A stretch of 64,000 bases of DNA from a bacterium (GTDB lineage Bacteria > Patescibacteriota > Minisyncoccia > UBA6257 > GWB1-50-10): the NCBI GenBank assembly GCA_021814545.1, contig JAKAID010000001.1:41590-105589 (forward strand), written 5' to 3'. Both the position numbers and the translations under genes were made by a program. Positions 2,129-63,282 of this stretch are shown here, piece after piece (within the stretch, counting starts at the first letter, position 1; every line of letters begins with the position of its first letter). The notes under the pieces are model-generated. The model made no database searches. It was not told the origin of the DNA and worked only from the letters and a program-made list of their open reading frames with translations.

Positions 2129-3303
2129 AGAAAAAGAACCAGGCGAAGAAGGCGGCAAAGCCGAAGGCGGGCGCGGCTAACGCAAAGAAAATAAAGAAGG
2201 TACGGAAGCTTATCGAGGTGCCGGAAGAGTACCGCGAGCGGCTTGAGGAGCTTGTGAAGCGCGGTCGCGCGCGCGGTTTTGTGAACGATGCGGAAATTTT
2301 GAACTACTTCCCCGACATCGAGAAGAACCTCTCATTCCTTGAAGAGGTGTATGGCCGTTTGGAACAGGAGGGCATCAAGGTGCACGAAACGACCGCGCTT
2401 ATTAAGACCGTCGATACGGAGCGCGAGGAGGTTTCGGCAAAAGAATTGCAGGACGCTACGCGCATTGAGCACGACCTTCCCGATGCGGTGCAGATGTACC
2501 TGAAAGAAATCGGCAGGACGCCGCTTTTGACTTCAAAGGAAGAGAAGGAGCTTGCGCGCCGCATTGAGGCGGGCGATGAGATAGCACGCCAGAAGCTTAT
2601 CCAGGCGAACCTTCGCCTTGTGGTTTCTATCGCAAAACGGTATGTGAACCGCAGTCCGCACCTTTCCATCCTTGACCTTATTCAGGAGGGGAACATCGGC
2701 CTCTCGCGTGCGGTCGACAAATTCGACTATCGCCGCGGGTTCAAATTTTCGACGTACGCGACCTGGTGGATACGCCAGGCAGTGACCCGTGCGCTCGCGG
2801 ACTATTCGCGCACCATTCGCATTCCGGTCCACATGGTGGAGACGATTACCAAGTACACGCAGACGAAGCGCCGCCTGATGCAGGAGCTTGGGCGTGAACC
2901 ACTGCCCGAGGAGATAGCGACCGAAATGAACCTCGATGTCGAGAAGGTGCATTATATCCAGAAGATATCGCAGGAAGTCATTTCGCTTGAGACACCCATC
3001 GGCGATGATGACGAAGATTCGACGCTTTCCGATTTCATTAAAGACGAGACGAGCATGAGCCCGGACCAGCTCGCGAACGCGGCGCTGCTCCGCGACCAGA
3101 TACGCGAAGTGCTGACGGACCTTACCGAGCGCGAGCGGAAAATTCTCTCGATGCGCTTCGGACTCGAAGACAACATCCCCCACACGCTTGAGGAGGTGGG
3201 TAAGGTGTTTGGCGTTACGCGTGAACGCATCCGCCAGATCGAAGCGAAGGCACTCGATAAGATACGCAACCATAAAGACATCAAAAAGCTCGAGGGGTAT
3301 TAA
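2125..3303 (+). CDS. rpoD: RNA polymerase sigma-70 factor RpoD
   Basis: Region 2 [29 protein letters not shown]; region 4 [22 protein letters not shown]; 4-nt overlap with dnaG stop. Confidence 0.9.
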
Positions 3304-3816: not shown

Positions 3817-5601
3817 ATGCACAATACTATGGTTCGCGTGACCACGAACGAAATGCGCGAGAAGTTCCTTGCCTTTTTCAGGTCAAAAGGACATACGATA
3901 ATCCCGTCCGCTTCTCTTATTCCCGAAAATGACCCAACGGTGCTTTTCACGACCGCGGGCATGCACCCCCTGGTTCCGTATCTCCTTGGCGAAACACACC
4001 CGGGCGGCAAGCGCTTGGCGGACGTGCAAAAGTGCATCCGCACGGGCGATATTGACGAGGTGGGAGACGCAACACACCTCACTTTTTTTGAAATGCTTGG
4101 CAACTGGTCGCTCGGCGACTATTTCAAAAAAGAGGCTATCGAGTGGAGCTATGAATTTCTGACCTCGCCCGAGTGGCTGAACCTCGATAAGAACCGCCTC
4201 GCGGTATCGGTGTTCGCAGGCGACAGCGATGCGCCTTTTGATGATGAGGCGTTCGCGATATGGAGGCGGCTTGGTATTCCAGAACCGCGCATCGCAAAAC
4301 TGCCGAAAAAAAATAACTGGTGGGGGCCGGCAGGTGAGACGGGGCCGTGCGGTCCGGACACGGAGATTTTCTATTGGACAGGGGACCCGAATCAGGTGCC
4401 CACGGGCTTTAACGACGACCACCCGCTCTGGGTGGAGATTTGGAACAATGTTTTTATGCAGTACTTCAAGGATAAGGAGGGTAAGTTCACTCCCTTGAAG
4501 CAGAAAAATGTGGATACGGGGATGGGCCTTGAGCGCGTGACGGCGATTTTGAATAACACCGAGGTGTATTCGATTGATGTGTTCCAGCCCATCATTGCAC
4601 TCATCGAGAAGTTGTCAGGAAAGAAGTATGGCGAGAGCGATGAAGTAACGCGGGCGATGCGCATTATTGCCGACCACATTCGCGCGGCGACGTTTATCAT
4701 CGGCGACCCGCGCGGCATCGTGCCCTCAAATGTTGGTCAGGGGTATGTATTGCGCCGGCTCATCCGTCGTGCGGTGCGCTACGGCAAGCAGCTTGGCATT
4801 GCTGACTATTTCGCGGCACGCGTTGCTGAACAGGTTGTTGCGCAGTTCAAGACAGCGTATCCCGAGCTTGTGGCGAACCAGGGAAAAATAACGAGCGAGC
4901 TTGCGAATGAGGAAAAGAAGTTCAGCGTAGCGCTTGAGAAGGGCCTGCGTGAATTTTCAAAGCTGAAACAGATAGATGGCAAGGTTGCATTTGACCTCTA
5001 CCAGTCGTACGGCTTTCCCATCGAGCTCACGGTTGAGCTTGCACGCGAGCACGGCTTTTCGGTTGATATGAAGATGTTCGAAGAGGAGTTCAAAAAGCAT
5101 CAGGAACTCTCGCGCACGGCGTCCGCGGGCACTTTCAAAGGCGGCCTCGCGGATAATTCCGAGGTGGTGGTGAAATATCATACCGCCACACACCTGCTCC
5201 ATGAGGCGCTTCGTGAAGTGCTTGGAACTCATGTAGAACAAAAAGGGAGTAATATCACTGCCGAGCGCATGCGGTTCGATTTTTCGCACCCTGCGAAGCT
5301 CACATCCGACGAGGTAAAACGGGTTGAGGAAAAGGTGAATGAGGTTATCAAGCGCGACCTGCCTGCGCATTTTGAAATGCTTACGGTAGAAGAGGCAAAG
5401 GCGCGGGGCGCTATCGGGCTCTTTGAAGACAAGTACGCAAAACTCGGTAACAAGGTAAAAGTATATTTTATCGGCGACTATTCAAAAGAAATTTGCGGAG
5501 GGCCCCATGTGGGACATACGGGCGCTATTGGCACATTCAAAATTCAAAAAGAGGAGGCGGTTTCCGCAGGTGTGCGCAGGATTCGCGCAGTTATTTCATA
5601 A
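3817..5601 (+). CDS. alaS: alanyl-tRNA synthetase, compact form (594 aa) lacking the long C-terminal domain
   Basis: N-terminal class II catalytic core FLAFFRSKGHTIIPSASLIPENDPTVLFTTAGM; editing-domain HxxxH motif HTATHLLHEAL. Confidence 0.85.
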   Translation: MHNTMVRVTTNEMREKFLAFFRSKGHTIIPSASLIPENDPTVLFTTAGMHPLVPYLLGETHPGGKRLADVQKCIRTGDIDEVGDATHLTFFEMLGNWSLGDYFKKEAIEWSYEFLTSPEWLNLDKNRLAVSVFAGDSDAPFDDEAFAIWRRLGIPEPRIAKLPKKNNWWGPAGETGPCGPDTEIFYWTGDPNQVPTGFNDDHPLWVEIWNNVFMQYFKDKEGKFTPLKQKNVDTGMGLERVTAILNNTEVYSIDVFQPIIALIEKLSGKKYGESDEVTRAMRIIADHIRAATFIIGDPRGIVPSNVGQGYVLRRLIRRAVRYGKQLGIADYFAARVAEQVVAQFKTAYPELVANQGKITSELANEEKKFSVALEKGLREFSKLKQIDGKVAFDLYQSYGFPIELTVELAREHGFSVDMKMFEEEFKKHQELSRTASAGTFKGGLADNSEVVVKYHTATHLLHEALREVLGTHVEQKGSNITAERMRFDFSHPAKLTSDEVKRVEEKVNEVIKRDLPAHFEMLTVEEAKARGAIGLFEDKYAKLGNKVKVYFIGDYSKEICGGPHVGHTGAIGTFKIQKEEAVSAGVRRIRAVIS

Positions 5602-5633: not shown

Positions 5634-7361
5634 ATGGCTGACGAGCGTCGCGATATCGTATATTTTGGCCGTACCAATTTCCGCAATCAGGACCGGCTTT
5701 TTGGTATTCGCCGCCGTGATAGGAGGCAGCACATGTACGTGATAGGGCAGACCGGCACCGGCAAGTCCAACATGATACACAACATGATCATGCAGGACAT
5801 CGCGAACGGCGAGGGGGTATGCCTCGTGGACCCGCACGGCGAGAACGTGGAGGGTATTTTGCAAAAAATCCCCGAGGAGCGTCTGAACGACGTTGTCTAT
5901 TTCAATCCCGCCGATACGGAGTTCAATATCGGTTTCAACGTACTCGAAATTCCCGACCCGAAGTACAAGCACCTTGTCGCTTCGGGCCTTATGGGTATTT
6001 TTACAAAGATTTGGTCGGGGGTGTGGTCGGCGCGCATGGAGTACATCATGAACAATGCGATTTTGGCGCTCCTCGAAACCCCCGGCACCACACTCCTTGG
6101 CATCACCCGCCTTCTTGTCGACAAGGAGTACCGCAGGGAGATAGTGGCGAATATTAAAGACCCGGTCGTGAAGGCATTTTGGGTGAACGAGTACGAGGAG
6201 TGGAAGGAGCAGTTCAGGAATGAGGCTATCGCGCCCATCCAGAACAAGGTGGGCCAGTTCCTTTCGACACCGCTCGTACGCAATATCGTGGGTCAGTCGA
6301 AGAGCACCATTGATATCGCGGAAATCATGAACTCGGGGAAGATATTCCTGGTGAACGTGTCAAAGGGGCGCATTGGTGAAGACAACTCGGCGCTCCTTGG
6401 CGCCATGCTTATCACGAAAATCCAGCTTGCGGCGATGGAGCGCGTGCGCATCCCCGAAGAAGAGCGCATCGATTTCTATCTGTATGTCGACGAGTTCCAG
6501 AATTTTGCCACGGATTCGTTCGCGAATATTCTTTCCGAAGCGCGCAAATACTATTTGAACCTTATTCTCGCGCATCAGTACATTGGCCAGCTTGTGACGG
6601 ACGCCTCGACCAAGGTGCGCGATGCCGTATTCGGCAACGTAGGTACCATGGTAACGTTCCGCGTAGGCGCGACAGACGCCGCATTCTTGGAAAAAGAATT
6701 CGAACCAGAATTTGGCATTCAGGACATGGTGAATTTGCCGAACTATCACATTTATCTGAAGCTCCTCGTGGGTGGCGTGCGCAGCAGACCGTTCTCAGCG
6801 ACGACCCTGCCGCCGCTTGAACTTGCAGCGTCGGGCGATATCGCCGCGCGCGTTATCCAAAATTCCCGAAAGCGCTATGCACTGCCGAGCAGCGTGGTTG
6901 AGGAAGATATACAGAACTGGAGTAGTGCGGGGGCGAAACCAGAGAATGAGGCAGATTGTATGAATTGCGGAAAGCATGTGAAGCTTCCTTTTACGCCATC
7001 GCCTGGGCGGCCGGTATATTGCCCCGATTGTTATGCGAAAGTGAAGTCGGGCGAGATAAAGTCGGCGCGGGTGACCGAGCGTGAACGCAAGGGAGGGGAA
7101 GCCGAATATCTTGGGTCCGAACAGCCCATACAGCGGCCCGAACGTCCGCAGGGTGCACGCCAGGGTCCTGCGCGCCCCGCAAGGAAAGCAACTATCGTCC
7201 GCGAGGGTCATACCGCAAAAGAGGCGGAACGTCCCGCGATAAGTTTGCGCGAATTGAAGCCCGTAGTGCCAAAAGAAGAGAAGCCGCGCACGCAAGGGGC
7301 GCAAAACTTGAGCGAACTTCGAAGGTCGCTTGAAGAGGCGATAGGGAAATTGAAGAAATAA
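5634..7361 (+). CDS. VirD4/TraD/TraG-like type IV coupling-protein family P-loop ATPase with a C-terminal zinc ribbon and basic tail
   Basis: Walker A GQTGTGKSN; Walker B YLYVDEFQNF; C-terminal CMNCGKHV...YCPDCYAK followed by a K/R/E-rich tail. Confidence 0.5.
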   Translation: MADERRDIVYFGRTNFRNQDRLFGIRRRDRRQHMYVIGQTGTGKSNMIHNMIMQDIANGEGVCLVDPHGENVEGILQKIPEERLNDVVYFNPADTEFNIGFNVLEIPDPKYKHLVASGLMGIFTKIWSGVWSARMEYIMNNAILALLETPGTTLLGITRLLVDKEYRREIVANIKDPVVKAFWVNEYEEWKEQFRNEAIAPIQNKVGQFLSTPLVRNIVGQSKSTIDIAEIMNSGKIFLVNVSKGRIGEDNSALLGAMLITKIQLAAMERVRIPEEERIDFYLYVDEFQNFATDSFANILSEARKYYLNLILAHQYIGQLVTDASTKVRDAVFGNVGTMVTFRVGATDAAFLEKEFEPEFGIQDMVNLPNYHIYLKLLVGGVRSRPFSATTLPPLELAASGDIAARVIQNSRKRYALPSSVVEEDIQNWSSAGAKPENEADCMNCGKHVKLPFTPSPGRPVYCPDCYAKVKSGEIKSARVTERERKGGEAEYLGSEQPIQRPERPQGARQGPARPARKATIVREGHTAKEAERPAISLRELKPVVPKEEKPRTQGAQNLSELRRSLEEAIGKLKK

Positions 7362-7363
7362 AA

Positions 7364-7390
7364 AATCCCCCGAGCGGGGGATTTTTTATT
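7364..7390. terminator. bidirectional rho-independent terminator
   Basis: aaaaatcccccgagcgggggattttttatt between the convergent ATPase gene and efp. Confidence 0.75.
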
Positions 7391-7970
7391 AGCTCTTATC
7401 GACGCGCTCGACGTATTCGCCGGTCGTCGTGTTTACTTTGACAACATCTCCTTCGTTGATGAAGAGGGGAACATTCACATTTGCGCCCGACTCAAGCACT
7501 ACTGATTTCGTGCCGCCCTGCGCCGTGTTGCCCTTTATTGCGGGAGGAGCTTCTACAACTTTAAGGTCCATTTTTACGGGAAGTTCGATGTTCACGAACT
7601 TGTCGCCGTACTTGTATGATTTCACTTCCGTGCTCGGTTTCAGGAACTTCGCGGCATCGCCGAGGAGGTCGGTAGTAAGGGAGAAGCGGTTTTTCGGGTT
7701 TCCTTTTTCGTTAAACCAGTACTGGCCTTTGGTTTCATAGATGAATATCACCGGAAGCATATCAATTTCCGCCTCGCGGAAGTCTTCATTCTGGTGCGCG
7801 GCATATTCGAGCACTTTGCCCGTTAAAAGATTCTTAATTTTTAACTGTGCGACCGGCTTCCTCTGCTGCATGCGGATGAAGGCATATTCTTTCACCTCAT
7901 ACGGGTCTGGGTCGTCGTTCTTGGTGAATATGGTACCGATCTTCAATTCGTTATATGCGAGTTGTGCCAT
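7389..7970 (-). CDS. efp: elongation factor P
   Basis: 193 aa; C-terminal KFVNIELPVKMDLKVVEAPP...VPLFINEGDVVKVNTTTGEYVERV characteristic of EF-P. Confidence 0.9.
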   Translation of the reverse strand: MAQLAYNELKIGTIFTKNDDPDPYEVKEYAFIRMQQRKPVAQLKIKNLLTGKVLEYAAHQNEDFREAEIDMLPVIFIYETKGQYWFNEKGNPKNRFSLTTDLLGDAAKFLKPSTEVKSYKYGDKFVNIELPVKMDLKVVEAPPAIKGNTAQGGTKSVVLESGANVNVPLFINEGDVVKVNTTTGEYVERVDKS

Positions 7971-8011
7971 AGCAGGGGTTATTATACGGAAAATTTGAAA
8001 AAAGGCAACCG

Positions 8012-9211
8012 ATGCAATATGATTTCCCGTATCCTATGTCAAGGATGGCGATGAGAACAAAGGGGAGGGTATTCGTGGGGATGTCCGGCGGAGTGGATAG
8101 CTCCGTTGCGGCGTTTCTGTTGAGGCGCGCGGGGTATGACGTTACGGGTGTCTTTATCAAGTGCTACAACATCGACGGGTGTGCGGAGCGTGATGCAGAG
8201 GATGCGCGCCGGGTCGCGGGGCAGCTTGAGATTCCTTTCTATGTGTTCGATCTCGAGAAGGAGTATAAAAAGAAAGTGGTGCAATACATGATAGACGGAT
8301 ACAAGGCGGGCATTACGCCGAATCCGGACGTGATGTGCAACAAAGAGATAAAGTTCGGACTGTTTCTGAAACGCGCCTTGTCGCTTGGGGCTGACTATGT
8401 GGCAACGGGGCACTACGTGAAACTTATTAATTCGCTTCGCGCCCCCTCGGAGAGTGTCTCCGGGGCGACGCCCAAGTCTTACTCTCCTCGCGGGCGCGAA
8501 GCTTCTTCCCTTTCTCTCGCGATAGCAGAGGACAAGAATAAAGACCAGTCATACTTTTTGTGGACGCTTACGCAGAACGAGCTGCGGCACTGCCTCTTTC
8601 CGCTCGGAGAACTCACAAAACCGGAGGTGCGCGCCATTGCGAAGAAGGCAGGACTTGTGACCGCAGAAAAGAAAGATTCGCAGGGCATCTGCTTTTTAGG
8701 AATGGTGGATCTCAAAAGTTTTTTAAAAAAATACATCAAGACAAAGAAGGGAGAGGTGCTTTCGACCGAGGGCGAGGGTATCGGCGAGCATGATGGCGCG
8801 CAGTTCTACACGATAGGGCAGAGGCACGGGTTCCGATTAACGGCGCCCGTTAGAAAGGGCGCGCACGAAACGCAGCCGCACTATGTGGTGGGGAAGGACG
8901 TAAGACATAACACCATCACCGTTGCGGAAGGGAGCGCACATAACGCGCTCTTCAGAAAAACGCTTTTGCTCGCGAACGTGAATATCGTCACCCCAGTAAA
9001 GCAAACGGAGAAGGTCTTGGCACGCGTGCGCTATCGGCAGCCACTTTCGCCCGCAACGCTTGCTAAAAAAGGCGCGGGCGCAAAAACGCGCTATGTGCTT
9101 ACGTTTGCGAAGTCCCAAAAGTTCGTTGCGGAGGGGCAATCAGCTGTTTTCTACAAAAAGGGAGGGGGGCTGGTCGGGGGAGGTATTATCGTGTATAATG
9201 GTTTGGCATGA
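8012..9211 (+). CDS. mnmA: tRNA-specific 2-thiouridylase MnmA carrying a 23-codon in-frame insertion of a palindromic repeat (8434-8502)
   Basis: PP-loop VGMSGGVDSSVAA; GHY...NKDQSYFLW region; an extra ~23 aa (SLRAPSESVSGATPKSYSPRGRE) where E. coli MnmA has ~18 aa. Confidence 0.85.
   Translation: MQYDFPYPMSRMAMRTKGRVFVGMSGGVDSSVAAFLLRRAGYDVTGVFIKCYNIDGCAERDAEDARRVAGQLEIPFYVFDLEKEYKKKVVQYMIDGYKAGITPNPDVMCNKEIKFGLFLKRALSLGADYVATGHYVKLINSLRAPSESVSGATPKSYSPRGREASSLSLAIAEDKNKDQSYFLWTLTQNELRHCLFPLGELTKPEVRAIAKKAGLVTAEKKDSQGICFLGMVDLKSFLKKYIKTKKGEVLSTEGEGIGEHDGAQFYTIGQRHGFRLTAPVRKGAHETQPHYVVGKDVRHNTITVAEGSAHNALFRKTLLLANVNIVTPVKQTEKVLARVRYRQPLSPATLAKKGAGAKTRYVLTFAKSQKFVAEGQSAVFYKKGGGLVGGGIIVYNGLA
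8434..8502. repeat. family B palindromic element, copy B1, in frame within mnmA
   Basis: Outer inverted repeat gcttcgcgccc/gggcgcgaagc; inner stem ggagagt/actctcc; 29-nt core gtgtctccggggcgacgcccaagtcttac (8454-8482) identical to 18236-18264; 69 nt = 23 codons. Confidence 0.7.
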
Positions 9212-9768
9212 AAAAGATATTCGGAGTTATTGCCGTAATAGCTTTGTTTTTTGCGGTTTTCCCGTTCGCACGCGCGGAGTCGAAGGTGCCTGTTAAGGCG
9301 TCCGCAACCTCGAGTCAGCCCACGAAGTGGGATATTTTGAATTTGATGCAGCACGGCGCGCTCCAAGCGACCTCGTCCTATGAAGCGACGTTCACCGATG
9401 ATGAAATAAACGAATTTTTGAACCAGGAGCTTGCTCAGCACAAAATGACATGGTTCGTTGACCGTGCGGCGGTACAGTTCCACGCGGATTCGGCGGATAT
9501 CACGCTTCACGTATTGCGCCCCTTTGCGGGAGACTTAGCGGTGAACGTGGTGCCGCAGGTCGCGGATGGTGAGGCAAGCATGGTAATCAATTCATCGTGG
9601 TACGGGTATCTCCCGTGGCCCTCGTCATTCTTCGAGCGCGTAGGCGATTTCATTTTGAAAAAAAAGACGATAGACGATTGGTTTTCGATCGAGAATGGGA
9701 AGTGGGACGCGATAACGCTGAGCGATGGCTCGGTTACCGTGAAAGTAAGTGGAACGGGCGAGAAATAA
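9208..9768 (+). CDS. secreted hypothetical protein (signal peptide)
   Basis: N-terminal MKKIFGVIAVIALFFAVFPFARA; ATGA overlap with the mnmA stop; immediately upstream of comEC. Confidence 0.45.
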   Translation: MKKIFGVIAVIALFFAVFPFARAESKVPVKASATSSQPTKWDILNLMQHGALQATSSYEATFTDDEINEFLNQELAQHKMTWFVDRAAVQFHADSADITLHVLRPFAGDLAVNVVPQVADGEASMVINSSWYGYLPWPSSFFERVGDFILKKKTIDDWFSIENGKWDAITLSDGSVTVKVSGTGEK

Positions 9769-9771
9769 ATA

Positions 9772-11250
9772 GTGTGCGCTGAAATGCTGCCGTACGAATA
9801 CTTCTTCTACGGCGGCATCTTTTTTCTCTCGGGCGTGCTTGCGGCAAGTGCCGGCGTGGCGCCCCTTTTTGTTACCATAGGAACGCTTTTTACGTCTGCC
9901 GTGCTTTTTTTGGCGCACTTTTACGGCGTGCATCCTCGCGCTCGGCTTTTTGCGGCGTTAATCCTGCTCGTGGTGGCGGGCTCTTTTTATTATCGCGCGC
10001 ACGATGTGCGTTTTCGTGCGGAACGGATTCCTTTCGGACAGAAATTAGCGTTTACGGGCACGGTTGCGAGCGACCCCGTCGCGAGCAATGGCGAGCAACA
10101 GATGAAACTTTCCGTGACCTCGCCCTTCCGCGCGAGCATACTTCTCATCGCACGGGGTTACCCGCGGCTTGCGTACGGGGATGCAGTGCGCGGTGTGGGC
10201 GCGGTGCAGTCCGTAGGCACCACGAGTTATGCGCGGTATCTCGAGAAGGAGCTTGTGCGTGGCACGATGCGATATCCGAGTATTGCACCGATTGGAGAGC
10301 GGAGGGGCTCGCGCGTCGTTGCGGCACTTTATGCAATAAAGCATAGAATCATGGCAGCGTTCTCAAATGCGCTCCCGCCCGACGAAGCGGTGTTTTTAAG
10401 CGGGCTTACCATCGGTGCGCGCGGCGCATTTCCCGACGAGCTCAAAGATGCAATGAAACGCTCGGGTACCACGCACCTTGTGGCGCTCTCGGGCTATAAC
10501 ATCACCATTCTTGTTGCGGTCGTCTCGTGCATGCTCCTCTCCTTCCTTTCGCGAAGAGCGGCGTTTTTTGTGACCGTTCCCATTATTATCGCCTTCGTTA
10601 CGATGACGGGAGCCGAGGCCTCAGTGGTCCGTGCGGGCGTGATAGGGGTCCTGGCGCTCCTTGCACGCGAGGTGGGGAGGGCACACGATATGCGCAACGT
10701 TATTCTTGCGGCGGGCATTGTGATGGTGCTCGCGAATCCCAAAGTGCTCGCATTCGATATCGGCTTCCAGCTTTCTTTTCTTGCACTTCTCGGGCTTGTG
10801 TATGTAGGCCCCGCGCTTATGAATCTTTTTCATATCGAGGAAGGAGGCAAGGGGCCCCTCTCATGGAAAGAGGGGCTTATTACCGCGCTTGCGGCGCAGC
10901 TCGCGACTTTGCCGCTTCTTGTCGGGAGCTTCGGTGTATTTTCTCCCGTATCGCTCATTTCGAATATCGCCATTCTCGAATTCATCCCGCCCACGATGGG
11001 GCTTGGGTTTTCCGTCGCGCTCGCTTCGCTCGTGTCAGGGACCGTTTCGCTTTTCCTCGGGCTTCTTGCGCACGTGTTTCTGAGGCTCGAATTGTGGCTC
11101 ATCTACTTTTTTGCTCGCATTAGTTTTCCGCTGCATTTCAAGATGAGCGTGGTGCTTGGTGCCGTGTACTACCTCGCGCTCGGCGTTTTTGTGTGGCGGT
11201 ATACTAAGAACCATGGTGGAAGCGCTCTTCGCACTCGTCACGCGAAATAA
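9772..11250 (+). CDS. comEC: DNA internalization competence protein ComEC/Rec2, membrane competence domain only
   Basis: Multi-TM protein; ComEC motif GTTHLVALSGYNITILVAVV. Confidence 0.75.
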   Translation: MCAEMLPYEYFFYGGIFFLSGVLAASAGVAPLFVTIGTLFTSAVLFLAHFYGVHPRARLFAALILLVVAGSFYYRAHDVRFRAERIPFGQKLAFTGTVASDPVASNGEQQMKLSVTSPFRASILLIARGYPRLAYGDAVRGVGAVQSVGTTSYARYLEKELVRGTMRYPSIAPIGERRGSRVVAALYAIKHRIMAAFSNALPPDEAVFLSGLTIGARGAFPDELKDAMKRSGTTHLVALSGYNITILVAVVSCMLLSFLSRRAAFFVTVPIIIAFVTMTGAEASVVRAGVIGVLALLAREVGRAHDMRNVILAAGIVMVLANPKVLAFDIGFQLSFLALLGLVYVGPALMNLFHIEEGGKGPLSWKEGLITALAAQLATLPLLVGSFGVFSPVSLISNIAILEFIPPTMGLGFSVALASLVSGTVSLFLGLLAHVFLRLELWLIYFFARISFPLHFKMSVVLGAVYYLALGVFVWRYTKNHGGSALRTRHAK

Positions 11251-14573: not shown

Positions 14574-14589
14574 CAAAGAGTTAAGACGA

Positions 14590-14678
14590 CCGCAACAAAA
14601 AGACCTTCTTCAACCCGCTCACGCCCCGTAGGCGGGGCTGCGCTTCCGTTTAGGTTTCAGAAAATCTTTTTGTTGCGG
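14590..14678. repeat. family A palindromic element, copy A1
   Basis: Outer inverted repeat gcaacaaaaaga/tctttttgttgc; 5' box CAACCCGCTCACGCC; hairpin ccccgtaggcgggg; 3' box CTGCGCTTCCGTTTAGGTTTC. Confidence 0.65.
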
Positions 14679-14774
14679 ATACCGGTGGAAAGATTTTACG
14701 ATTTGCATTCGCGGGTATTTTTGTTAGCGTTATTGTAGAACTTGAACACATTATCGAGAAAGGAGGTCGGAGCG

Positions 14775-16672: not shown

Positions 16673-16769
16673 GCAGCCGCAAAACGAATTTCCCCTCAAC
16701 CCGCTCACGCTCCGTTAAAACGGAGCTTCGCTTCAGTTTGGGTTTCGGGGAAATTGTTTTGCTGGCTGC
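16673..16769. repeat. family A palindromic element, copy A2
   Basis: Outer inverted repeat gcagccgcaaaacgaatttcccc/ggggaaattgttttgctggctgc; 5' box CAACCCGCTCACGCT; hairpin ctccgttaaaacggag; 3' box CTTCGCTTCAGTTTGGGTTTC. Confidence 0.65.
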
Positions 16770-17499: not shown

Positions 17500-18120
17500 A
17501 TGGATATTACGCTTTTTATTTTTCAGCTCATCGTGCTTGTGTTCTCGGTCGTGGTACATGAGATATCGCATGGGTTTGTGGCGGAGCAATTGGGCGACCC
17601 GACCGCGCGGCGCGCAGGAAGGCTTACGCTGAATCCCGTGAATCACATCGACCCCGTAGGCTCGGTCATTTTGCCACTGCTTATGGCGATTGCGGGCGGT
17701 GTGGTGTTCGGGTGGGCAAAGCCGGTACCGGTCAATCCGCGTTACTTTAAAAACCCCGAGCGGGATTATGCGCTCGTTTCGGCGGCGGGACCCATAAGCA
17801 ATCTTACGCTCGCTGCCGCGTTCGCAATATTATTCCGCGCATTGCCCTTTGTTGTAGCGGGGGAGGCAGCCTCCGCATTGCAGAATTTTTTCAGCATCAT
17901 CGTCATTACGAACGTCTCGCTCGCGATCTTTAACCTTGTGCCCATTCCTCCGCTTGATGGCTCGGGGGTGCTCTTGGCGCTCCTGCCGCGCTCGGCAATG
18001 GGCGCGCGCATATTCCTTGAGCGGTACGGATTTATTATTTTCCTCGTGTTTGTCTTTTTCGGGCTCTCGTTCATTGGGCCCATCATAGAATTCGTCGCAC
18101 GAACGATGCTCGGAATGTAG
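17500..18120 (+). CDS. site-2 protease family (peptidase M50) zinc metalloprotease
   Basis: HEISHGFVAE HExxH motif inside a TM helix; multi-pass membrane protein. Confidence 0.75.
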   Translation: MDITLFIFQLIVLVFSVVVHEISHGFVAEQLGDPTARRAGRLTLNPVNHIDPVGSVILPLLMAIAGGVVFGWAKPVPVNPRYFKNPERDYALVSAAGPISNLTLAAAFAILFRALPFVVAGEAASALQNFFSIIVITNVSLAIFNLVPIPPLDGSGVLLALLPRSAMGARIFLERYGFIIFLVFVFFGLSFIGPIIEFVARTMLGM

Positions 18121-18156
18121 AGATTTTTTAAGTTTTTGTGCATTCAAAAATTGAAC

Positions 18157-18328
18157 GCAAACAAGAAGACCCCCTCGGAACCCGCTCACGCCATGCAGTC
18201 CCCGAAGCGCTCGCCCGACACTCTTGAGCTCGAGGGTGTCTCCGGGGCGACGCCCAAGTCTTACCCTCTCGCCAAGAGTGTCGGGGCTCGCTATGCGACT
18301 GTAGGTTTCGATAAGCCTTCTTATTTGC
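18157..18328. repeat. family A palindromic element, copy A3, containing nested family B copy B2
   Basis: Outer inverted repeat gcaaacaagaagacc/ccttcttatttgc; 5' box GAACCCGCTCACGCC; 3' box CTATGCGACTGTAGGTTTC; central hairpin replaced by the B element. Confidence 0.65.
18212..18287. repeat. family B palindromic element, copy B2 (nested in A3)
   Basis: Outer inverted repeat cgcccgacactcttg/caagagtgtcggggc; inner stem gagggt/accctc; identical 29-nt core at 18236-18264. Confidence 0.7.
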
Positions 18329-18395
18329 TCCTTGCCTCGAGGATACGGGGTTGACGTTTTTCTGTGTTGCCCCTATACTAATCCCTGTTTAACCG

Positions 18396-18809
18396 ATGCC
18401 GACCATTCGACAACTCATCAAGAACGGGCGCAAGACCAAAAAGGGCAAGGACAAGACTCCTGGCCTCGGTTATTATTTCAACTATTTACAGAATCGCCGC
18501 GTGAACTCGGCGTCGCCTTTCAAGCGCGGCGTGTGTCTCAAGGTGTTCACTACGACTCCAAAGAAGCCGAACTCGGCACTTCGCAAGGTGGCGCGTGTGC
18601 GTTTGACGAACGGCATGGAAGTCACCGCGTACATTCCGGGCGAGGGTCACAACCTCCAGGAACACTCGGTGGTGGTCATCCGCGGCGGCCGCGTGAAAGA
18701 CCTTCCCGGTGTCCGTTACCACATTGTGCGCGGGGTGCTCGATACGGCGGGTGTAGACCGCAATCAGCAGAGGTCCAAGTACGGTGCGAAGAAAAAGAAG
18801 AAGAGCTAA
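18396..18809 (+). CDS. rpsL: 30S ribosomal protein S12 (with ~13-aa insertion [13 protein letters not shown])
   Basis: [22 protein letters not shown]...[32 protein letters not shown]. Confidence 0.95.
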
Positions 18810-63109: not shown

Positions 63110-63265
63110 GAATATAAAAAGAAATTCCTCTCTGAAATGAGAGGAAGCTGTGTGTCGACCTTTATCTTCCCCTGTTCCAGGGTTGGATGGAGCACCTTCT
63201 TTGAGTTCCCAAAGGGTTGCTGGGTGGATCACGGAGCCAATTCTCTCCCCACCGCTCTTCATAAG
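63110..63265 (-). ncRNA. SAM-I (S-box) riboswitch with terminator expression platform, in the metK leader
   Basis: RNA sense CUUAUGAAGAGCGGUGGGGAGAGAAUUGGCUCCGUGAUCCACCCAGCAACC...GGUGCUCCAUCCAACCCUGGAACAGGGGAAGAUAAAG; P1 CUUAU/AUAAG; terminator GCUUCCUCUCAUUUCAGAGAGGAAUUUCUUUUU. Confidence 0.75.
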
Positions 63266-63282
63266 TATTCGATTGTACGAGC

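Follow-up and report, generated by a model that had tools for sequence, protein, structure and literature searches.

The window analysed here, 64,000 nucleotides (nt) of the forward strand of contig JAKAID010000001.1 (GCA_021814545.1, positions 41,590–105,589; GTDB lineage Patescibacteriota, Minisyncoccia, UBA6257, GWB1-50-10), contains two copies of a previously undescribed repeat family, “A-type”, an imperfect palindrome of ~85 nt found in the Parcubacteria/Paceibacteria part of the Patescibacteria. One copy lies between genes, and the other lies in frame inside mnmA, the gene for tRNA 2-thiouridine(34) synthase. It is highly probable, we believe, that this is a repeat family spreading by some copy mechanism, with its hairpin and tip kept by selection, transcribed at the ends of genes and translated in tolerant loops. 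The full account, in which the mnmA insert is one A-type copy and its spread, its translation and a role at 3' ends are all explained together, we hold to be reasonably probable. The features on which the argument is built, all on the + strand of the window, are as follows.

8012–9211, +: mnmA open reading frame (ORF); likely start at 8051, giving a 386-aa product identical to protein P0001
8426–8510, +: A-type copy 1, inside mnmA and in frame; full 85-position covariance-model match (76.4 bits, E 2.8e-20), with family alignments
8434–8502, +: insert hairpin of 69 nt; outer stem gcttcgcgccc/gggcgcgaagc, inner stem ggagagt/actctcc
8454–8482, +: 29-nt core of copy 1; family-invariant apical loop and mini-hairpin GGGC-GAC-GCCC, translated as VSGATPKSY
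18206–18294, +: A-type copy 2, intergenic; covariance-model match (66.6 bits, E 2.4e-17)
18236–18264, +: 29-nt core of copy 2, with compensated inner stem gagggt/accctc; repeat family D6
18170–18320, +: outer hairpin scaffold around copy 2; arms GGAACCCGCTCACGCC ... GTAGGTTTCGA match the hairpins of a second family, B, at 14587–14681 and 16673–16769 (repeat D12)

The 29-mer GTGTCTCCGGGGCGACGCCCAAGTCTTAC matches the window exactly at the two cores and, with up to three mismatches allowed, nowhere else in it; 100 shuffles gave no match (0 expected by chance), so the shared core reported in the preliminary description stands. Each 29-mer is the tip of a long hairpin. In mnmA, the nested palindrome is present as claimed, with outer arms at 8434–8444 and 8492–8502 around the inner stem, and the RNA of 8425–8510 folds at −44.9 kcal/mol (z = −6.1), a stability equalled by 0 of 200 shuffles. 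In copy 2, the inner stem GAGAGT/ACTCTC of copy 1 is replaced by GAGGGT/ACCCTC, the A>G being matched by T>C, which is the compensatory change that had been noted before. Copy 2 is indeed intergenic, its neighbours being a membrane-protein ORF (17500–18120), a sigma-70-like promoter site (18351–18379) and rpsL (from 18396); what has to be corrected is that it is nested in a second, larger hairpin scaffold, so that the hairpin of which it is the tip is longer still (−72.5 kcal/mol, z = −5.2). A terminator call on copy 2 was negative, and neither window copy has a T-run. With covariance model R1, the high-scoring matches in the window are the two known copies only.

The two copies belong to a large family. 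The exact 23-nt core TCTCCGGGGCGACGCCCAAGTCT has 69 occurrences at 63 loci in 25 species-level assemblies, all of them metagenome-assembled genomes (MAGs) of Patescibacteria, and 71 exact-core copies were analysed in total (55 intergenic, and 16 inside ORFs, in frame and stop-free); the dispersed palindromic repeat family foreseen from the window is thus real. The complete 805-kb chromosome OY970216.1 carries 14 copies and another MAG 11. Host labels are Wolfebacteria, Jorgensenbacteria, Brennerbacteria, Nomurabacteria, Paceibacterota and Minisyncoccia; three assemblies are labelled Saccharibacteria, labels that we judge unreliable. Over 23–29 nt, the tip is identical across lineages ranked by NCBI as separate candidate phyla. 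The related loci were examined as 8-kb stretches around the copies rather than as whole genomes, and in 517 kb of them model R1 finds 80 A-type matches, of which only two are neither exact-core copies nor mnmA inserts.

Nothing of this kind appears to have been described before in the Candidate Phyla Radiation/Patescibacteria, as had been supposed. Rfam 15 at the gathering threshold finds two tRNAs and a SAM (S-adenosylmethionine) riboswitch in the window and no family for the element, at E up to 10 only two 12-bit chance-level matches in 18100–18400, and in four related loci only tRNAs and rRNA; the literature, searched by topic and by literal sequence, yielded neither the element sequence nor such elements in Patescibacteria. 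The riboswitch (S-box; 63159–63267, − strand, 54.6 bits) is above the Rfam gathering score. Searches of IMG/VR viral contigs, GenBank phages and PLSDB plasmids gave no A-type element either.

The unit spans about AGCTCGCC to GGCTCGCT, and 71/71 copies fold into long hairpins. From base to tip, the hairpin is composed of a basal stem, a 2×2 U/C-U/C internal loop, a stem of ~15 bp, a second UC/UC loop, an inner stem of 5–6 bp and an asymmetric apical loop (GUCUCC ... AAGUCUU), which closes on the mini-hairpin GGGC-GAC-GCCC. The aligned copies read (A)GCTCGCC, ~11 variable nt, CGCTC-AGGCT, GTCTCCGGGGCGACGCCCAAGTCTT, AGCCT-TCGCG, the complementary ~11 nt, and GGCTCGC(T). Both U/C-U/C loops are conserved, the upper one being unpaired in 52 of 56 copies, and on the bottom strand they read as tandem G.A.

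The covariation of the stems, previously seen in the window pair, extends to the family as a whole. In a gap-free alignment of 50 copies with a 28-pair structure, 91.4% of cells are paired, compared with 32–43% when the partners are slid by 1–3 columns, and 330 cells hold double changes, compared with 64–86 in the slid controls; the observed covariation was reached by 0 of 500 shuffles. The middle stem fits GCC-RRR-YA-YYYYY-GC, most of its variation being C-G to U-A transitions, and such a degenerate consensus means that the copies come from one ancestor and have diverged under a pairing constraint. Under this common consensus, the two window copies have homologous outer arms: the arms had been called unrelated, which is not the case, as both sets fit the consensus and differ mainly by compensated transitions. 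For the same reason, we rejected the possibility that the middle stem is hypervariable and was created at insertion or was a pre-existing hairpin. A search of 924 kb for a pairing partner complementary to the loop found only related hairpins (family C, below) and no partner.

The gene that carries copy 1 is identified as mnmA by the Pfam tRNA_Me_trans domains of its product, by homologs named MnmA, and by the MnmA structures 9hlv, 2hma and 2der (E ~1e-78 to 1e-86). Its ORF runs without a stop through the element, and the 69-nt insert supplies 23 stop-free codons encoding SLRAPSESVSGATPKSYSPRGRE, from the serine codon at 8432–8434 (its two first bases included) to the last codon at 8498–8500. 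In comparison with the solved MnmA structures, whose sequences are gapped there, and with many Patescibacteria orthologs, the window protein has ~22–23 extra residues exactly at the insert, so the proposed in-frame insertion holds. Among the 120 closest MnmA homologs, the segment from GHYV to NKDQSYF is short and E. coli-like in 40, contains (S/G)VSGATPKSY in 25 and is longer in other ways in 55, and close relatives at 71–72% identity are without the insert. The insert is lineage-restricted in this sense, but it is old, common to many lineages and not specific to the genome of the window. On a rough neighbour-joining tree of these homologs the A-type state changes at least 19 times, and its presence in mnmA is therefore patchy. 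In-frame copies occupy this first mnmA site in 10 loci; a second site, in the C-terminal domain before V-ARVRYRQP, is filled in L002 (88–172), L092 (3500–3584) and L147 (1345–1429), the last of which (protein P0013) has both sites filled in one gene (776–859 and 1345–1429).

In the AlphaFold2 model of the window MnmA (mean predicted local distance difference test score, pLDDT, 88.3), residues 131–147 of 386 are the one internal stretch that scores below 50, and they are flanked by β-strands at 124–128 and 153–157. Taken with the gap in the solved MnmA sequences, this low score makes the insert, by prediction, a disordered loop where the chain turns from one β-strand to the other, which agrees with the loop placement anticipated earlier. 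The turn is a general hotspot for hairpin-forming inserts: in 80 metagenomic mnmA loci chosen without reference to the element (L064–L143), the loop length spans 24–94 residues, and strong folds, down to −93 kcal/mol, are predicted for many of the inserts other than A-type. Across the Patescibacteria, many of the mnmA-loop inserts are unrelated, and several have palindromes at the level of the peptide (e.g., …FPISNFQF…IENSLKIENYKL…). The surroundings of the gene are syntenic in the window (5634–11250) and in L144–L154, with a TraG/VirD4-like coupling protein (C-terminal zinc ribbon), efp on the opposite strand, mnmA, a 186-aa protein without a Pfam match, and comEC.

We compared 11 mnmA genes in pairs, that of the window and 10 for which protein similarity was the sole criterion of choice. 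Diversity at third codon positions is 0.02 over the nine core codons, as against 0.61 in TGHYV and 0.45 in NKDQSYF, two flanking peptide motifs that are equally conserved. The common intergenic form, TCT TAG CCT, would bring a stop into the mnmA frame; the mnmA copies have TAC in 11/11, while the intergenic copies have TAG in 47 and TAC in 6 (n = 55). The partner pair in the inner stem is C-G in 38 of the 50 aligned copies, G-C in 12 and unpaired in none. A change from TAG to TAC that only translation calls for has thus been made with the pairing kept, which speaks for an insert that ribosomes translate and whose hairpin is maintained as well. Every mnmA copy seen has a length that is a multiple of three and is free of stops.

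Between genes, the element has a preferred place and direction. In 30 of the 55 intergenic copies, a co-oriented open frame of ≥150 aa ends 24–37 nt before the core, and the mirror orientation is found in 2; this distance corresponds to the base of the hairpin, so the stop codon abuts the element. TAA, TAG and TGA are all used, in all three phases, on which grounds readthrough of the stop codon or recoding of the selenocysteine insertion sequence (SECIS) type was rejected. The strand of the element follows the neighbouring gene and not the replichore defined by GC skew (8 of the 14 OY970216.1 copies are co-oriented with it), so a replication-strand bias of the kind known from HUH single-strand transposition is not seen. 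A run of at least four T within 8 nt of the stem follows 12 of 39 gene-end copies, and about 10–12 of 54 copies have a second, simple terminator-like hairpin downstream. These would place the element in the 3' untranslated region, as a terminator or upstream of one. The host genes include, by Pfam, uvrB, nth, rplK, topA, RNase J, dnaE and an insertion sequence (IS) transposase and, by eye, recG, rpoD, a release factor, tsaD, murF, ftsX and pilB. It is our post-hoc impression from L001–L063 that genome-maintenance hosts are over-represented, with copies inside uvrC, recG and rarA and directly after recG, uvrB, nth, topA, dnaE and a UvrD-like helicase gene.

Besides mnmA, the in-frame hosts, catalogued from DNA loci only, are uvrC (sense in L004 and L045, antisense in L052), recG (L015) and rarA (L060), and in UvrC, RecG and RarA the copies are located between conserved motifs. 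In uvrC, an 81-nt element fills one site before RIEGYDISN in opposite orientations, both in frame (sense …LSPGRRPSLS…, antisense …RLGRRPGD…), which implies in-situ inversion or independent insertion. The recG copy is antisense, between helicase motifs II and III; the copy in the rarA-like AAA ATPase gene uses a third sense frame and lies just before Walker B. A protein search with the element in four other frames returned 51 candidates, none of them scoring, although such a search is ill-suited to motifs of 25 aa.

As for how the family spreads, four copies in OY970216.1 (L017, L034, L035, and L050) share the near-identical stem CAGGTACTCCTTCC in unrelated flanks. Their common sequence, about GCTCGYC to GCCTCGCT, defines the unit, and they represent at least one recent duplication of the element to unrelated loci; from these four copies in one genome we infer that the element is mobile. 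The arms of the element are inverted repeats, and the flanks of the four copies hold no consistent direct repeat. GCTCGC, present at both ends, was considered as a target-site duplication and rejected, being a product of the conserved UC/UC mismatch that recurs in the upper stem. A rve-type IS transposase, of a different family from RAYT, lies upstream of one copy (L024).

Hairpins are also nested within hairpins. Window copy 2 is enclosed by a family B scaffold; in L034 5789–5908, the apical loop holds an extra hairpin bordered on either side by CAAG, a possible 4-nt target duplication; and L011 5468–5570 has a similar extra small hairpin within the apical loop. The suggestion that the element inserts into pre-existing hairpins fares differently at the two places: in mnmA it fails, since there the whole hairpin is the insert, while nesting is found elsewhere (window copy 2 and L034). 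Two other hairpin families are relevant here, one from the window and one from related genomes.

Family B hairpins, window: 14587–14681, 16673–16769 and the scaffold 18170–18320; variable outer stem, TCAACCCGCTCACGC … GC-TTC-GTTT-RGGTTTC
Family C hairpins, related genomes: L004 ~4255–4339, L014 ~3122–3206, L031 ~4809, L035 7188–7276, L039 1446–1534 (= L095 1765–1853)

Family B shares with A-type the design UC-A-stem … stem-U-UC. One of its sites follows tRNA-Pro, one is between two minus-strand genes and one encloses A-type copy 2, with fold z-scores of −3.2 and −8.9; among 144 sequences searched, related loci included, its core occurs in the window only. Family C has the form GAAAAAGTG-TGCG-CTCCGG-mini-hairpin-CCAAGTCTTACC-CACTTTTTC, with a mini-hairpin stem that covaries (GGGC/GCCC, GGCC/GGCC, GGCC/GGTC), and its tip strands, CUCCGG and CCAAGUCUUAC, match the A-type tip. 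What is conserved, then, is the apical internal loop, which occurs on more than one scaffold. A further hairpin, AT-rich and perfect (AAUAAAAAAUCCCCCGC/UCGGGGGAUUUUUUAUU), is found in the window at 7349–7398, over the 3' ends of the convergent TraG/VirD4-like gene (ending at 7361) and efp (minus strand, ending at 7389); it resembles a bidirectional terminator and matches the element model weakly on both strands.

Among known systems, the Rickettsia palindromic elements (RPE-1 to RPE-8) are the closest in behaviour, as the preliminary description had proposed. They too are dispersed palindromes found between genes and in frame in conserved genes, where a translated segment in a surface loop leaves the host protein intact (for A-type, by AlphaFold2 prediction). 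The likeness is an analogy, of behaviour only and not of membership in the RPE families by sequence; the host phylum differs, all A-type hosts being Patescibacteria MAGs, and at ~85 nt the A-type element is shorter than RPEs, which measure ~100–150 nt. The A-type tip is moreover invariant across deep lineages, and its intergenic copies abut stop codons in a fixed orientation, neither of which is, to our knowledge, a feature of RPEs.

The REP (repetitive extragenic palindromic) and BIME elements of Enterobacteria and Pseudomonas, with their RAYT transposases, are likewise short, imperfect, multi-copy palindromes with conserved mismatches, mostly in 3' untranslated regions, oriented with transcription and proposed as 3' stabilisers of mRNA or as terminators. 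Unlike REPs (20–40 nt), A-type is longer, also occurs in frame inside genes and is conserved in sequence across separate candidate phyla (as ranked by NCBI), not just within species; it has no GTAG/CGTC head, its 5' ends aligning at (A)GCTCGCC with stop codons and then purines upstream, and no RAYT transposase was identified for it in the 8-kb loci. Correia elements (CREE), ERIC and other miniature inverted-repeat transposable elements (MITEs) resemble it in size, in co-transcription with neighbours and in forming hairpins that affect mRNA processing or termination; however, MITEs carry terminal inverted repeats bounded by target-site duplications (TA in Correia), no such duplication was seen for A-type, and the most conserved part of A-type is the loop, not the termini.

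Two further comparisons concern the ends of genes. Integron attC sites are imperfect palindromes directly after a stop codon, in fixed orientation, with structure kept over sequence, conserved unpaired bases and a better fold on the bottom strand, all as in A-type; but the A-type alignment has no R'' (RYYYAAC) or R' (GTTRRRY) boxes, the copies form no cassette arrays and have no integrase beside them, they follow housekeeping genes (dnaE, topA, uvrB, rplK and RNase J among others) spread tens of kb apart, and the loop sequence is conserved. Intrinsic terminators are GC-rich hairpins at gene ends, and a T-run comes directly after roughly one A-type copy in three. Most copies have none, however, some are followed by a separate terminator-like hairpin, and an invariant loop common to all copies is foreign to terminators.

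The mechanism we propose is as follows. The element would be transcribed as part of an mRNA. At gene ends, it would form a stable 3'-end hairpin, either terminating transcription itself, which would fit the third or so of copies with a T-run directly after, or standing between the stop codon and a separate terminator. Its invariant tip may be the docking site of a conserved trans-acting factor, an RNA-binding or RNA-processing protein or an enzyme that copies the element. In the tolerant loops of MnmA, UvrC, RecG and RarA, in-frame copies would simply be translated, as Rickettsia palindromic elements are; the mnmA frame would have required the change from TAG to TAC, with the matching C-to-G in the opposite arm leaving the inner stem paired. 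The functional part of this account, a 3'-end hairpin with a docking tip, has in our view somewhat less than an even chance of being right. More tentatively still, the tip CUCCGG-hairpin-CCAAGUCUUAC of families A and C is possibly a new functional RNA motif of Patescibacteria that docks a conserved protein for the 3'-end formation, stability or translation-coupled decay of mRNAs from housekeeping and genome-maintenance genes. If so, the motif would be placed where the terminating ribosome touches it and would be dual-coded in mnmA, uvrC, recG and rarA, the 23 residues of the window MnmA being a by-product of an RNA element.

Several observations tell against the proposed mechanism. Most copies were retrieved by the exact 23-mer, so the apparent invariance of the core is inflated; the protein-selected mnmA set and the model scan give a partial correction, with 11 exact and 5 variant or decayed copies independent of that ascertainment. 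The element can be lost from mnmA: it is decaying in L151, L152 has a compensated tip variant (GGGGC-TA-GCCCC) and L154 an apparent internal-deletion remnant, states that show it to be dispensable there. The 8-kb loci revealed no transposase and no target-site duplication, nor any pair of close strains with one empty and one filled site, and the case for mobility is therefore made from one near-identical subfamily. Two in-gene copies are antisense, as is one window family B hairpin relative to its neighbours. A role at the level of RNA is something that we infer from orientation only. In the alignment of all 71 copies (A1), sense-orientation C.A/A.C mismatches (57) outnumber G.U (22), and in 59 of the 71 copies the reverse-complement strand folds more stably, which simple selection on sense-strand RNA does not predict. 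This mismatch asymmetry could be due to purine loading of the sense strands or to a role of the bottom strand.

An unlikely alternative is a purely selfish palindromic repeat of the MITE, REP or RPE kind with no function for the host, in which the hairpin and core are kept by the needs of a transposase, by gene conversion or by template switching, and copies end up after stop codons because there they do least harm in a streamlined genome. The family is multi-copy and dispersed, one subfamily has expanded recently, hairpins are nested in hairpins (L034, L011 and window copy 2), presence in mnmA is patchy over those 19 or more changes of state, copies decay or get deleted (L151, L154), and several in-gene copies lie in either orientation, all as a selfish repeat would have it. 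Intramolecular template switching in quasi-palindromes is also known to yield apparently compensatory changes without selection. However, neutral relics should decay, and orthologous copies (mnmA site 1 across lineages; L003, L008, and L021) keep an identical core despite saturated synonymous sites in their flanks; the conserved UC/UC mismatches have not been “corrected” into perfect pairs; avoidance of harm alone would not lead one to expect a 30-to-2 orientation bias at stop codons; and neither the lack of a transposase or target-site duplication in the 8-kb loci nor the absence from the viral, phage and plasmid collections is what such a repeat would suggest.

Rather improbable, in our estimate, is a functional form made of DNA, in which a single-stranded or cruciform hairpin, perhaps of the bottom strand, is the target of a recombinase, of some factor in replication or repair, or of an uptake machinery. 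The better fold of the complementary strand in 59/71 copies fits such a hairpin, as do the sense C.A mismatches, which are G.T on the bottom strand, and the UC/UC loops, which become tandem G.A there, although the asymmetry could stem from purine loading of the sense strands. Integron attC sites sit just after the stop codons of cassettes in fixed orientation, with conserved structure and variable sequence, and A-type copies are placed alike; yet they have no RYYYAAC/GTTRRRY boxes and no cassette arrays, and follow housekeeping genes tens of kb apart. Genome-maintenance functions look frequent among the A-type host genes, as has been reported for Neisseria uptake sequences, and comEC is two genes downstream of mnmA, but at about one copy per 50 kb the element is far too sparse for an uptake signal. 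Its strand, finally, follows the local gene and not the replichore.

Two further explanations concern mnmA itself, and we regard both as very improbable. In the first, selection for MnmA function would have kept the 23 residues as a protein module, and the repeat in the DNA would be a side effect. VSGATPKSY is conserved in those 25 homologs, but the synonymous positions are invariant as well, the same DNA is read in other frames or on the other strand in UvrC, RecG and RarA, 55 of the 71 copies are intergenic, and the segment is predicted to be disordered and is missing from many close orthologs. In the second, the insert would be lost before translation or in the course of it, being a mini-intron, an intervening sequence excised by an RNase, or a bypass element like those of Magnusiomyces mitochondria. 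A very stable hairpin within a coding region would suit this, but every mnmA copy seen keeps a stop-free length divisible by three, the frame-specific TAG-to-TAC change with its matched partner (11/11) is needed only if the insert is translated, and no ribozyme or intron family of Rfam matches. To a chance repeat or an assembly artefact as the source of the two window copies we give next to no credence, for none of the 100 shuffles contained a match, the exact core exists in 25 assemblies from unrelated studies, and 11 contigs of the assembly collection (GCA_027349205.1 among them) encode a protein identical to the window MnmA, which together with the 25 assemblies excludes an artefact. None of the findings that would have refuted the preliminary description was made: the core has further copies, close orthologs are without the insert, and the window pair is no artefact.

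The genomes of Patescibacteria are very small and contain little non-coding DNA, and the RNA biology and mobile DNA of the group are almost unexplored. The A-type family is either a new example of proteins remodelled by selfish DNA, as happens with Rickettsia palindromic elements, or a handle on an RNA–protein system in this group. Covariance model R1 can be used to mark gene ends and to flag “extra” protein segments that are derived from repeats, as distinct from functional domains, and the hotspot in the mnmA loop, with its 24–94 residues, suits the study of how hairpin DNA enters genes.

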